Source of the DNA: a phage
DNA length: 64,000 bases
Sequence record: PZ027503.1
Reading direction: 5' to 3' (one strand)
This document shows positions 3,598 through 41,398 of this stretch, one piece after another. Made by a program: the position numbers and the translations under genes. Numbering within the stretch: position 1 is the first letter of the stretch; each line of letters opens with the position of its first letter. Under the pieces are notes generated by a model. The model was given only the letters and a program-made list of their open reading frames with translations. It had not been told where the DNA came from and did no database searches.

Positions 3598-3861
3598 CTA
3601 AATAACATCTTTGAAATAGTGAATCACTTCAATATTATGGTACAAAGTGCTTCGCTCTTTTGTGTACTCTGTTTTAGTAACAAACACTTTTGCAATACCG
3701 TACTTATGTGCTGGTAGGTTTGGATTGGTTTGCATAATTTCTTTCACTACACTTATAGTTTCGTGCTCGGATTCCCAATAAGTGAAGTAACCCTCACTAT
3801 CAACGATTAAAGACTCGTTTTCAAGATCTACAAAACAGAAAAATATTGACGGATGGCTCAT
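3598..3861 (-). CDS. hypothetical protein (87 aa)
   Basis: ORF track. Confidence 0.55.
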   Translation of the reverse strand: MSHPSIFFCFVDLENESLIVDSEGYFTYWESEHETISVVKEIMQTNPNLPAHKYGIAKVFVTKTEYTKERSTLYHNIEVIHYFKDVI

Positions 3862-4025: not shown

Positions 4026-4471
4026 GATTGAGTTCCTTTTTGTTTTTCAATGGCTGCACGAATTTCTGCTAAAGGCTCTGCTACCAGATCTTCAACTTCT
4101 TGGATTTGTTCATTCATTACGTCACGAACCATTTGAATCCGCTCTTCAAGGGAAACAGCAAGTTCATCTGCATAAGCCATATTAAGAACGTGGTAGAAAT
4201 TTTCTTGTGCACTTAAAGCACCAGATAACAAATAATCCTGATCTTCCTCTGGTAAAAGCATGTGTTGCTCATATTCAGCAAAAGTGTTTTTGTTAATCTC
4301 AAGCAAAGCACCCATCATAACATCATACTGATAATCTTTATGGCCAGGGTTGTTTAAAATAACATCTTCAAAGATATTAAGAAGAATCTTAGTAACAAAA
4401 GCATTGTTTTCGGCACCTTCCATCTGACGGATTACCGTGATTACTTCTTTTTCTTTAGCGTTTTGGCTCAT
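4022..4471 (-). CDS. hypothetical protein (149 aa)
   Basis: ORF track. Confidence 0.6.
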   Translation of the reverse strand: MSQNAKEKEVITVIRQMEGAENNAFVTKILLNIFEDVILNNPGHKDYQYDVMMGALLEINKNTFAEYEQHMLLPEEDQDYLLSGALSAQENFYHVLNMAYADELAVSLEERIQMVRDVMNEQIQEVEDLVAEPLAEIRAAIEKQKGTQS

Positions 4472-5304: not shown

Positions 5305-5361
5305 TGACTTTTTCAAAAAAATATGGTACCCTAAACATATGTTTACGAGCGATAGCGAGTA
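5305..5361 (+). promoter_or_regulatory. conserved element copy 1 (TTGACT...TACCCT...GAGCGATAGCGAGTA)
   Basis: near-identical to 42177-42234; followed by inverted-repeat hairpin 5382-5416. Confidence 0.4.
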
Positions 5362-5462
5362 GTAGATTTCTATATAATAATGTTTCATGTTACTCACGAT
5401 AGTGAGGTATGAAACGTAAGTGAAGGTAGATAAACTATGATCATCTATCTACCATCTATTAA

Positions 5463-26028: not shown

Positions 26029-26139
26029 CTATTTTTTCTTTTTCTTTGCTTCCAACCGTCTAAGGTTACGGCTTGACTTATTGCGCAAGGCGCTTAGATC
26101 GTCGTACCCTTTCCATGCTTGCATATCTTTCGGATTCAT
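26029..26139 (-). CDS. small basic protein (36 aa)
   Basis: ORF track frame; start at internal ATG with GGGGGATAAC RBS; K-rich C-terminus. Confidence 0.35.
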   Translation of the reverse strand: MNPKDMQAWKGYDDLSALRNKSSRNLRRLEAKKKKK

Positions 26140-26149
26140 GTTATCCCCC

Positions 26150-26428
26150 TTAACGATTATAAACATTATGGATGGCTTCAAAGGCAAGATGACCATAAGC
26201 CGCCAAATCGGGATTGATCCAAGCGTTATCCAACATCGTTTCAAGGACTGTGGAATCATCGTATAAAGCATCATAGAAATCTGCACGGATGATCGTTTCA
26301 ATGTCGTCCGGTGTTAGTTTGTCGTTCAACTTGCACACTGTTTCAACGTCAACACCAATTTTCCAATTTTGTAAATTAGTGGTTAACATTGTTTTCATTT
26401 CTTCGGTTGTTAATTTAACGATGGTCAT
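26150..26428 (-). CDS. hypothetical protein (92 aa)
   Basis: ORF track; cassette upstream. Confidence 0.55.
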   Translation of the reverse strand: MTIVKLTTEEMKTMLTTNLQNWKIGVDVETVCKLNDKLTPDDIETIIRADFYDALYDDSTVLETMLDNAWINPDLAAYGHLAFEAIHNVYNR

Positions 26429-38922: not shown

Positions 38923-39269
38923 AGATTATCAAAATAACTAGCGAATAAAAGACGGCCCTCTAACCGTGCCTTCCTTTGATCTTCAGCATACACGATTTCT
39001 GGATTACCACTATCAATAAAAGCATTCTCCATCTTTTCTAAAATATTTAACCACTCTCTTCTACCTGTCTCCTCTTCTTCATCTGTATACGGCGCACTTC
39101 TATTTGGATACAAAACACGCATCAGTTTAGTGGGGATCATGACAAACGTGCTATTGTTTGCCTTCTCACGGAAGGCTTTAATTCCTGCATAGATTACCTT
39201 CCCCAAAGCTGCATCCAAATCCATCAGGTCACTTTCTTCTATTTGAATTTCATCGTGTACAATTTTCAT
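38913..39269 (-). CDS. hypothetical protein (118 aa)
   Basis: ORF track. Confidence 0.55.
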   Translation of the reverse strand: MKIVHDEIQIEESDLMDLDAALGKVIYAGIKAFREKANNSTFVMIPTKLMRVLYPNRSAPYTDEEEETGRREWLNILEKMENAFIDSGNPEIVYAEDQRKARLEGRLLFASYFDNLWS

Positions 39270-39553
39270 CGTGCCTTCTCCCGATCTGCATCTAATTTCA
39301 ACAAGAAAGCTGTATACTCTTCCGAACCTTGGTGTAAAAACATGTGATAAGAGCTTACCAGTTTCTTCGTTGTCGTATAACGTTCCATTTCCCCAACAAC
39401 ACCTCCACCTAGTGTGTAGAGCACAATACCTTCAACTCCAACATAGGTTACTACTTCAACCAAGTCTGTGTTATCCCAATAGTAGTTAGGTGACACAATA
39501 AGATCGCCAACTGCCAGTTTAATGTTTGCTACTTCATCTTGTGAATAATACAT
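39266..39553 (-). CDS. hypothetical protein (95 aa)
   Basis: ORF track frame; start at internal ATG with GAGAGGAGAA RBS. Confidence 0.55.
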   Translation of the reverse strand: MYYSQDEVANIKLAVGDLIVSPNYYWDNTDLVEVVTYVGVEGIVLYTLGGGVVGEMERYTTTKKLVSSYHMFLHQGSEEYTAFLLKLDADREKAR

Positions 39554-39590
39554 TTGGTTCTCCTCTCTTAATTGATGGAAATAGTATACC

Positions 39591-40082
39591 TTACCACATA
39601 ATCTCGCGCAACTCTTTTTCTTCTTTAAAATTACGCAAGTTTTCCAGTGCACGGTTTAGGTCTTCTTCCGTCTCTGCTTTCTGGACTTTTTCCATCATTT
39701 TCGCAACAATATTTTTCTTAACTTGCAAATCTGGAACAGGCATACGTTTTTCCATTTCATAAACTTCTCGTTTATGACGTTCCTCCATCTCTGCTTTTTC
39801 TTTTACCCAATCCGCCTCGTCCATTGCACCTTTGCAGACACAAGTGTAACCTTTAATAGTATAATCACCATGTTCAATACCAGGTTGAAGAGCTAAGGCT
39901 TCATTACCACAATACGCGCACAACGGACGACCTGGCATTTTCAAAGTTTTGGTAGCCTTAGCGCCACATTGACTATCCCAGCTTGTTTTATAACTGGAAC
40001 CGTTGTCTCCGTGAGAACGACCAACCAAGAAGTTACGGAAGAAACCCATAGCACGTTCGTCAATGTAATCAGGGTAAGCCAT
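39591..40082 (-). CDS. Cys-rich protein with coiled-coil C-terminus (163 aa)
   Basis: ORF track; CAYCG...CVCKG. Confidence 0.55.
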   Translation of the reverse strand: MAYPDYIDERAMGFFRNFLVGRSHGDNGSSYKTSWDSQCGAKATKTLKMPGRPLCAYCGNEALALQPGIEHGDYTIKGYTCVCKGAMDEADWVKEKAEMEERHKREVYEMEKRMPVPDLQVKKNIVAKMMEKVQKAETEEDLNRALENLRNFKEEKELREIMW

Positions 40083-40094
40083 TATATTCTCCTT

Positions 40095-40388
40095 TCACAT
40101 TAAGACACGTTTTGTGTCGATGGGTGCATTATCAAACATGTTAAGAACATTGTCAAGCAGTTTTACTAATTCGTTTGTAATTTGTTCCTTTGAACGGGAG
40201 GAAGTGAGCACTTTGCTTTCACCAACAATATGCATAACTTTTATAGGAGCGTCTAAAATGATGTTGTGCTGACGATCCTCTTCAAAAGAAGCCAACCATT
40301 TCTCATTGTTACCGTGCAAGGCTATAATCACACCAAAACCGTTAATTGTTTCAGAAATATTCTTAGTTGCTAAAGTAATGTTCATCAT
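40095..40388 (-). CDS. hypothetical protein (97 aa)
   Basis: ORF track. Confidence 0.55.
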   Translation of the reverse strand: MMNITLATKNISETINGFGVIIALHGNNEKWLASFEEDRQHNIILDAPIKVMHIVGESKVLTSSRSKEQITNELVKLLDNVLNMFDNAPIDTKRVLM

Positions 40389-40443: not shown

Positions 40444-40471
40444 GTTGACATGCTTTTTAGTCCTGTTAAGA
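40444..40471 (+). promoter_or_regulatory. sigma70-like promoter for rightward operon
   Basis: TTGACA-N16-TAAGAT, then GAGGAG RBS and ATG 40503. Confidence 0.55.
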
Positions 40472-40502
40472 TCAACTCATACAAAACGAGAGGAGAAAAC
40501 AA

Positions 40503-40931
40503 ATGCAAAACATGACTTGGACCGAAGCTAAAGAAGCGATGCAGAATGGCAAACGTGTGAAGCACGAATACTTCTGTAGTGATGAGTGGTTTGAGATGCA
40601 ATACGGTGTTATTCTGGATGAGCATGGCTACAATATGTCAAACTGGTTCCGAGGGGAAGCTTGGCAGGAACAGGGTTGGTTTGTAATTGAAAAAGAAGAC
40701 AGTAAGGAAGAAGGCGTGTTGTCTAATGTAGAACGCGAGATGAGGGAAACAAAGATACCTGCTTTGGATTTTGTATACCTGGAAGAACTTGTGGCAGCAT
40801 CTTTTGTAGCAGGAAACCTTTGGAATACACCTGTTAGCCGACTGGAGAACCAAAATAACCCGTCTGCTCGTAATCACAAGCTTTATAAGGGTAAAGGTCA
40901 CAACAAATTAAAGAAAGGAAAGAAGAAATGA
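40503..40931 (+). CDS. protein with DUF2829-like (Tad2-like) N-terminal domain and basic tail
   Basis: WTEAKEAMQNGKRVKHEYF...WFRGEAWQEQGWFVIE pattern; function call tentative. Confidence 0.45.
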   Translation: MQNMTWTEAKEAMQNGKRVKHEYFCSDEWFEMQYGVILDEHGYNMSNWFRGEAWQEQGWFVIEKEDSKEEGVLSNVEREMRETKIPALDFVYLEELVAASFVAGNLWNTPVSRLENQNNPSARNHKLYKGKGHNKLKKGKKK

Positions 40932-41074: not shown

Positions 41075-41398
41075 ATGTCAAACAGCCTGTTTAGCGTGTC
41101 AATTGCACCACGTGTCAACATCCGTTGTCAGTTTGTTACTTTACCTGGTGTAACGCATATCACATTAGAATACGATCCTCGTTCACGAGAGAACCCAATT
41201 ACAGGTAAGATTGATTCAGCCTACGGCGACTTCCTGATGGATCACCAAGCGATCTTATGTTGTGTGCAACGCTTACAGGCAGGGTCTTTATACATCTTTA
41301 AGAAAACGGTGTTCCAAGAGATTGCTCAAGCAGTTGAAAGTGGTATGGAGACTCTTAACGCTATGATTGAAGCAGCCAACAAGAAGGAGGTTTTATGA
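41075..41398 (+). CDS. hypothetical protein (107 aa)
   Basis: ORF track. Confidence 0.55.
   Translation: MSNSLFSVSIAPRVNIRCQFVTLPGVTHITLEYDPRSRENPITGKIDSAYGDFLMDHQAILCCVQRLQAGSLYIFKKTVFQEIAQAVESGMETLNAMIEAANKKEVL

Follow-up and report, generated by a model that had tools for sequence, protein, structure and literature searches.

Tad2-like proteins are among the most widespread counter-defence sponges of phages, and with every clade studied to date another immune signal has come to light. Known phage sponges are short homo-oligomers with positively charged pockets. The Tad2 pocket has been retargeted repeatedly, to glyco-cyclic ADP-ribose (gcADPR), histidine-ADP-ribose (His-ADPR), N7-cyclic ADP-ribose (N7-cADPR), cyclic UMP and cyclic CMP (cUMP/cCMP) and cyclic dinucleotides. 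Tad2 of phage SPO1 (gp34.65; PDB 8SME-8SMG, 8WJE), the founder of the Pfam family PF11195 (DUF2829), consists of α1 and β1-β5, with extended β2-β3 and β4-β5 loops that bear α2 and α3. Its gcADPR pockets lie between the protomers of a tetramer and are built from the loops β1-β2, β3-β4 and β4-α3, strand β4 and helix α3, with ligand contacts by W25, N26, W73, S76, T78 and D79. The β2-β3 element forms a V-shaped dimer and, in long Tad2s such as HgmTad2 and SptTad2, the cyclic-dinucleotide pocket. Here, we describe a gene at positions 40503..40931 of a 64,000-nucleotide stretch of phage DNA (record PZ027503.1; the whole stretch is hereafter called the window). We conclude that the N-terminal head of its product is truly, if remotely, homologous to the Tad2-like domain and that it belongs to a separate family not covered by Pfam. 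What is new at this locus is best described as a Pfam-orphan, mini-Tad2-like family, whose Phapecoctavirus-type orthologues additionally carry a conserved linker and a polybasic tail.

Like SPO1 Tad2, the head of the window protein is a short, phage-encoded domain. In both, an N-terminal helix of the pattern x-[FW]-x-EA-x-x-A-[LM]-x-x-G-x-x-V precedes an antiparallel sheet that ends in [DG]W-x-[IV], and the helix and first strands align in register. The head lacks the stretch corresponding to SPO1 Tad2 residues ~36-59, which comprises the β2-β3 loop with α2, whereas SPO1 Tad2 lacks the 79-residue C-terminal extension with its polybasic tail. A preliminary description of the locus had assigned a DUF2829-like N-terminal domain to this protein and had proposed structure prediction as one of its checks. 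This check came out in its favour. In the full-length AlphaFold2 model, the predicted local distance difference test (pLDDT) score is 83-91 per ten-residue block in the head and ~50-60 beyond it. When the whole model was compared with the PDB by Foldseek, the first eight matches were all Tad2 chains except for rank 3, and the best of these chains had a probability of 0.94-0.95, a target-normalised template modelling (TM) score of 0.58-0.62 and E ~0.4. A model of the head alone, built from a deeper alignment, reaches a pLDDT of 91.9, with helices at residues 6-14 and 53-56 and strands at residues 18-21, 30-33, 36-39 and 59-62. It thereby shows the fold expected of PF11195, in which α1 lies on an antiparallel β sheet and a short helix precedes the last strand. 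In the BFVD database, several matches of the head-only model are annotated ‘DUF2829’ or ‘Thoeris anti-defense 2-like’. One of these, a DUF2829-annotated viral protein of 63 residues, is 33% identical to the head, with E 1.5e-4 and a TM score of 0.71-0.75.

Profile comparisons point in the same direction. A word-index search returned 21 database proteins at E ≤ 0.01, all of them close homologues of the Phapecoctavirus type. A full HMMER profile scan, which covered 1.8 billion representative proteins, was needed to reach the wider family. It yielded 203 proteins at E ≤ 1e-3; among those listed, nearly all match via the head only, and most are stand-alone proteins of 59-70 residues. The head family thus is a Pfam-orphan family of at least 200 phage proteins, mostly ~60 residues long. 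In single Pfam scans of the window head and 88 relatives, weak PF11195 matches appeared in 33 of the 89 sequences, with a best E of 2.9e-4, while the next most frequent Pfam family had five matches. The PF11195 scores of two of the relatives, 12.7 and 15.3 bits, compare with a curated cut-off of 25. Aligned as families by hhalign, the head and Tad2 match with a probability of 88% and E 3e-6 over 38 columns, which cover α1, β1 and β2. A search of the PDB sequences with the head-family profile gave seven matches, among them SptTad2 and ModTad2 (E 0.21 and 1.3), and in their alignments the N-terminal helix and the terminal DW-x-V strand are in register.

Several of these numbers would also suit a resemblance that is convergent, or that reflects a trivial small α-plus-β-sheet fold and says nothing about ancestry or function. 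Identity to the solved Tad2 structures is 11-16%, the Foldseek E-values against the PDB are 0.4-3, the hhalign alignment is short and the E-values of the PDB-sequence profile search are high. However, both the motif of the N-terminal helix and the final GW-x-I/V strand are aligned in register, and the DUF2829-annotated 63-residue proteins bridge both families. We therefore regard convergence as most unlikely.

The head nevertheless departs from Tad2 in essential respects. While the claim of a DUF2829-like domain stands as a statement on Tad2-like fold and remote homology, supported by Foldseek and hhalign, it does not stand as an assignment to PF11195. A DUF2829 profile search, another check named in the preliminary description, gave no significant match, which is the profile result that the description had named as speaking against it. 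Neither the window protein nor any of its 19 close homologues matches PF11195 even at E ≤ 10. No member of the head family carries a precomputed PF11195 annotation, and direct searches with the window protein found nothing in Pfam, in NCBIfam or, by phmmer, among the PDB sequences.

The differences extend to the residues that bind ligand. For comparison, SPO1 Tad2 was taken from NC_011421, with its residue numbers checked against the paper, and 78 PF11195-annotated homologues were aligned. Invariant in this alignment (n=78) are R22, G24, W25, N26, G27, K28, W73, S76, Q77, T78 and D79, which belong to the motifs R-x-G-W-N-G-K, behind β1, and W-x-x-S-Q-T-D, ahead of α3. At the corresponding positions, the head family reads H21-x-Y-F24-[TSAC], with C25 and then a gap in the window protein, and none of the 89 members has the SQTD motif. 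What survives of the Tad2 contact positions is their aromatic character alone (F24; W48 or F49; W59), and an acidic residue often lies near the D79 position. In the head model, the β2-β3 loop is a two-residue turn (Y34-G35), and the global hhalign alignment shows a gap opposite SPO1 residues ~36-59. The element that makes the V-shaped dimer or the cyclic-dinucleotide pocket is therefore absent. This also separates the head from HgmTad2/AcrIIA7 (8KBI) and ModTad2 (9EIB), to which it is 16% identical. In these proteins, which bind gcADPR, cyclic di-GMP and cyclic GMP-AMP (cGG/cGAMP), His-ADPR and cUMP/cCMP, long β2-β5 insertions make a cyclic-dinucleotide or extra pocket, whereas the head has its two-residue turn at that place. 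Thus, three of the four testable features that define the Tad2 family (the PF11195 profile, the ligand motifs and the β2-β3 insertion) are missing from the head and the core fold is present. For this reason, we do not file it as a member of the Tad2 family.

The preliminary description had pointed from the fold towards a sponge of the Tad2 type, whose ligands would be isomers of cyclic ADP-ribose or cyclic oligonucleotides; this function does not follow. In its full form, this explanation holds that the protein is a genuine Tad2-type sponge for gcADPR isomers and/or cyclic di- and trinucleotides that inhibits Thoeris or CBASS, with the tail as an accessory. It accounts well for the Tad2-like fold, for the survival of the W25/W73 aromatics as F24 and W48 or F49, for a small polar residue in place of N26 and for the common acidic residue near D79. 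It would also agree with the early position of the gene and with the many signals bound across the Tad2 family. Yet PF11195 is not matched, the invariant WNGK and SQTD motifs are absent, the insertion that serves cyclic-dinucleotide binding in HgmTad2 and SptTad2 and aids dimerisation is missing, and the head is acidic. We consider a canonical sponge improbable.

The conserved positions of the head family itself are A9, M13, G16, H21, F24, E28, E40, G42, Y43, G58 and W59. H21, F24 and E28 lie in the β1-β2 loop, while E40, G42 and Y43 lie in β3-β4 and β4, and these are the elements that line the Tad2 pocket. Because the family-invariant residues (H21, F24, E28, E40, G42, Y43 and W59) sit in the pocket loops of Tad2, we infer that a binding site with different chemistry has been retained. 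Like known sponges, the members of the head family are short and phage-encoded, they occupy early or accessory locations and some occur as tandem duplicates. In view of these traits, of the conserved residues in the pocket loops and of the known retargeting of Tad2, we favour a ligand-binding head of new specificity. Accordingly, our preferred reading, which we hold tentatively and with somewhat less than even confidence, is that of an early anti-defence or host-takeover protein, in which a ligand-binding head of altered specificity is joined to a polyanion-binding tail, and which is not a canonical gcADPR or cyclic-dinucleotide sponge. Here, the head would retain an oligomerising, ligand-binding module whose specificity differs from that of every characterised Tad2 sponge. 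The basic tail would dock the protein on a polyanionic host component, which could be a nucleic acid, the ribosome or a membrane, and the protein would act early in anti-defence or host takeover.

Several observations weigh against this proposal. With a net charge of -6, the head is acidic, and two of the residues that are basic throughout the Tad2 alignment are missing from it, whereas the pockets of known sponges are positively charged. The Tad2 dimer interface (α2 and β2) is partly missing, and hence the tetramer that forms the pocket may be absent. In a Pfam scan of 47 extended family members, nearly all fusion partners were unannotated and none was a known sponge. No database relative of the tail was found among PDB sequences, with a back-translated DNA pattern or in a Pfam search of the C-terminal 80 residues, and its polyanion-docking role is a guess.

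The C-terminal half of the protein is conserved in a manner that calls for an explanation of its own. We aligned the window protein with 19 of its 21 close homologues, which are 62-88% identical to it. In this alignment, the head is well conserved yet variable. The middle region varies in length and contains the invariant residues L93, E94, L96, A98, A99, S100, G104, W107, P110, V111, S112 and R113. Its D-[FYM]-x-x-LE motif is also seen in three distant orthologues (P0022, P0023 and P0038). The tail, PSARNHKLYKGKGHNKLKKGKKK, is nearly fully invariant across all of these close homologues. The preliminary description's lysine-rich C-terminal tail is thus a real feature, and it contrasts in charge with the head and with the middle region (net charge -5).

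Conservation of the tail extends to much more distant relatives. The peptide HKLYKGKGHNKLKKGKKK is kept at the protein level in orthologues of 30-40% identity, and the motif HKL-x-KGKGHN[KR]L[KQ]K[GR](G)KKK-COOH is found in P0022, P0023, P0031 and P0038, in which the head is 30-40% identical and the middle is unalignable. Since the codons of the tail differ synonymously among orthologues (CAC/CAT, GGT/GGA/GGC, TTA/CTT/CTG, AAA/AAG), selection acts on the tail peptide, and this polybasic C-terminus is under strong selection at the level of the protein. The final codons of the tail, AAA GGA AAG AAG AAA TGA (40911-40931), double as a Shine-Dalgarno-like sequence for the downstream open reading frame (ORF) of 48 residues, and the AAATGA ending of the gene is kept in all five loci compared. 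The overlap with the downstream start and its Shine-Dalgarno sequence accounts for the final three to four tail codons at most. A DNA pattern for K-G-[KR]-G-H-N-[KR]-L-x-K matched a single IMG/VR contig, from the same type of phage. Against the PDB sequences, the sole match of the tail was the IBB region of importin-α (E 1.3), which we dismissed as meaningless. The tail may also resemble the mRNA-channel peptide of ArfA; we do not use this likeness as evidence.

Such conservation is what would be expected under the main rival explanation, in which the head is a scaffold or protein-interaction domain and the C-terminal half is the functional part. Its tail would bind DNA, RNA, the ribosome or a membrane, and the protein would serve host takeover by interfering with the nucleoid, translation or secretion, unrelated to the sequestration of immune signals. 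In line with this, the tail and the motifs LEELVAASF and TPVSR are more strictly conserved than the head and persist in distant orthologues with an otherwise unalignable middle. The bipolar distribution of charge (-6, -5, +10) fits as well, as do the SEC-C motifs that some relatives carry at the position of the tail. On the other hand, most family members are head-only proteins of ~60 residues, and the head must therefore have a function of its own. Moreover, the conserved residues of the head are concentrated in the loops from which the Tad2 pocket is made, and searches of PDB sequences and Pfam revealed no homology of the tail to any known binding motif. A function residing in the C-terminal half, with the head as scaffold, thus appears rather unlikely to us.

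The SEC-C endings occur in four distant members of the head family (P0097, P0106, P0110 and P0117), where they score above the Pfam cut-off for PF02810, and a few other members end in different basic tails. Short basic or zinc-knuckle C-termini have thus been acquired by the head on several occasions. The SEC-C motif in SecA binds SecB and ribosomes. Like the window protein, the SEC-C relatives carry a short basic C-terminal peptide after a variable linker. The tail of the window protein is, however, no SEC-C motif (C-x-C-x(8-9)-C-[CH]), as it has no cysteines and no Pfam match, and the likeness is positional only.

A more specific form of our preferred reading, which we offer as a long shot, is a tethered mini-Tad2. 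In this version, the head would use a pocket of His, Glu, Glu and aromatic residues to take up a ligand that differs from the known immune nucleotides, while the invariant tail would dock on a specific host machine, so that the protein acts locally in the first minutes of infection. Candidate ligands would be a metal, or a signal that is cationic or conjugated to an amino acid. The docking target could be the ribosome, a SecB-like chaperone or the nucleoid, and the SEC-C zinc knuckle would replace the tail in relatives.

The contexts in which the head occurs elsewhere are varied. In the PHROGs database, the window protein belongs both to phrog_22208 (residues 3-142, E 1.7e-87), which covers the full length, and to phrog_3474 (residues 1-63, E 5.1e-30), which covers the head only; neither family has an assigned function or, in the resource searched, a link to Tad2. 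Tail-bearing orthologues occupy the equivalent site in related large myoviruses: P0031 is the first gene to the right of a divergent promoter, and P0023 comes third in an operon of this kind, at locus L009 (contig of Logan SRR23814683, 50.8 kb). Within 6 kb of the latter lie genes for Gad2 (anti-Gabija), NADAR and RNA-ligase domain proteins, which makes this locus rich in candidate counter-defence genes. Head-only relatives are found in the early region of an N4-like phage, beside gp1 and gp2, and at the start of a small-gene cassette in another phage. The only informative fusion that we found is P0293, a metagenomic protein of 169 residues, in which a dATP/dGTP pyrophosphohydrolase (PF04447, MazG-like) is followed by a C-terminal head. 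In P0043, P0116, P0114, P0092, P0129, P0169 and others, two heads are arranged in tandem, which may hint that the domain works as a dimer or higher oligomer.

Two candidates were discarded in the course of this survey. P0055, a protein of 2489 residues with 15 matched stretches, at first appeared to be built of head repeats. It consists of Tudor/Agenet-like repeats (GDRVEARYKGGSKWYKGKI...) that have no match to the head profile, and its spurious profile match stems from a composition rich in lysine and glycine. Atd1, which has been reported as an anti-TIR protein of Phapecoctavirus, is unrelated to the gene described here, being a MazG-like enzyme. We found no published treatment of this gene or of the head family.

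We regard the locus as a credible lead: it points to a new branch of an anti-defence fold that has been studied extensively, here combined with a strongly conserved tail that calls for explanation. With at least 200 sequence clusters, the head family escapes PF11195 and presumably also the anti-defence finders that rely on the PF11195 model. Should the head bind a ligand, it might serve to fish for a signal or metabolite that matters in early infection of E. coli, as ModTad2 led to His-ADPR. The conserved polybasic tail, together with the SEC-C tails of relatives, suggests a targeting principle that has not been described for sponges. If, alternatively, no small molecule is bound, the protein would show how far the Tad2 fold by itself can be trusted as a sign of sponge function.

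The coordinates of the gene, its parts and its surroundings are collected in Table 1. The translation of 40503..40931 contains both strings quoted in the preliminary description, WTEAKEAMQNGKRVKHEYF and WFRGEAWQEQGWFVIE. The upstream ORF 40095..40388 lies on the opposite strand, so that the rightward block begins with 40503..40931, whose stop codon is overlapped by the next ORF. The claim that it opens a rightward operon is thereby borne out. Phage ASO2A shows the same arrangement: its syntenic gene is the first coding sequence on the right-hand side of a promoter that is annotated in a divergent intergenic region.

The promoter proposed for this gene, TTGACA-N16-TAAGAT, also held up. Its score in a consensus scan is 10/12, with a TG that extends the -10 element; the promoter is conserved in five loci and is annotated as such in ASO2A. 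Promoter-like motifs are common in this region (14 found vs 10.6 ± 3.0 in shuffled sequences), and we consider the promoter credible because of its conservation across the five loci, not because a motif match is rare. The footprint shared by these loci comprises the hexamers TTGACA-N16(TGn)-TA(A/T)GAT with their 16-nucleotide spacing and the TG, as well as a distance of 29-30 nucleotides to the first ATG of the operon; GAGGAGA, in the Shine-Dalgarno region, is kept in all five as well. Two of the loci (L009 and L010) come from distant phages, in which the promoter is kept despite a differing spacer and flanks. A conserved, extended -10 promoter of the sigma-70 type implies early transcription by the host RNA polymerase. 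Judged from the sequence, 40503..40931 is thus probably an immediate-early accessory gene of a lytic E. coli phage of the Phapecoctavirus type.

Table 1. Features of the locus; positions are those of the window unless another locus is named
Feature	Position	Strand	Details
Coding sequence, 142 residues plus stop	40503..40931	+	First gene of rightward small-gene operon; phrog_22208, E 1.7e-87
Head, residues 1-63	40503..40691	+	Minimal Tad2-like α1-β1-β2-β3-β4-α-β5, without β2-β3 insertion; phrog_3474, E 5e-30
Acidic middle, residues 64-119	40692..40859	+	Two low-confidence helices; motifs LDF-x-YLE-x-LVAASF and W-x-TPVSR
Polybasic tail, residues 120-142	40860..40928	+	PSARNHKLYKGKGHNKLKKGKKK; 23 residues, net charge +10
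Sigma-70-type early promoter (predicted)	40445..40472	+	TTGACA 40445-40450, 16-nucleotide spacer ending TGT, TAAGAT 40467-40472
Shine-Dalgarno AGGAG	40491..40495	+	7 nucleotides before ATG; read directly from the sequence
Upstream neighbour ORF	40095..40388	-	Opposite strand; 114-bp divergent gap to 40503
Downstream ORF, 48 residues	40928..41074	+	ATGA overlap of its ATG with the stop of 40503..40931
Promoter-to-ATG footprint, window	40445-40502		
Promoter-to-ATG footprint, L001	6446-6503		
Promoter-to-ATG footprint, L008	~4409-4465		
Promoter-to-ATG footprint, L009	~5323-5379		
Promoter-to-ATG footprint, L010	~3620-3676		

The 2-kb region around the gene is matched by 100 phage records. Its identity is 98.9% to Escherichia phage WPEC1 and 93-97% to a large number of Phapecoctavirus genomes (Stephanstirmvirinae, ~150 kb), and all genes within this region are annotated as hypothetical. 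The neighbouring ORFs 39266-39652 (-), 40095-40388 (-) and 41075-41398 (+) match only Phage_tudor (PF24144), DUF7325 (PF24011) and DUF7247 (PF23905). In the Pfam scan, the neighbouring genes thus provide no functional context, being DUF-type, phage Tudor or otherwise unannotated. The 64-kb window contains neither a paralogue of the head nor a canonical Tad2 gene, and no tRNA or tmRNA genes were found across positions 1-64000. DUF7325 and Phage_VG64 are seen again close to the orthologues in L009 and L010. A reading stretch at 26032-26313 (-) also has a polybasic C-terminus (...RNLRRLEAKKKKK), in a sequence unrelated to the tail of 40503..40931. In the leftward operon, the ORF of 163 residues at 39591-40082 (-), which has no Pfam match, contains cysteines in the arrangement CAYCG...CVCKG, suggestive of a zinc ribbon.

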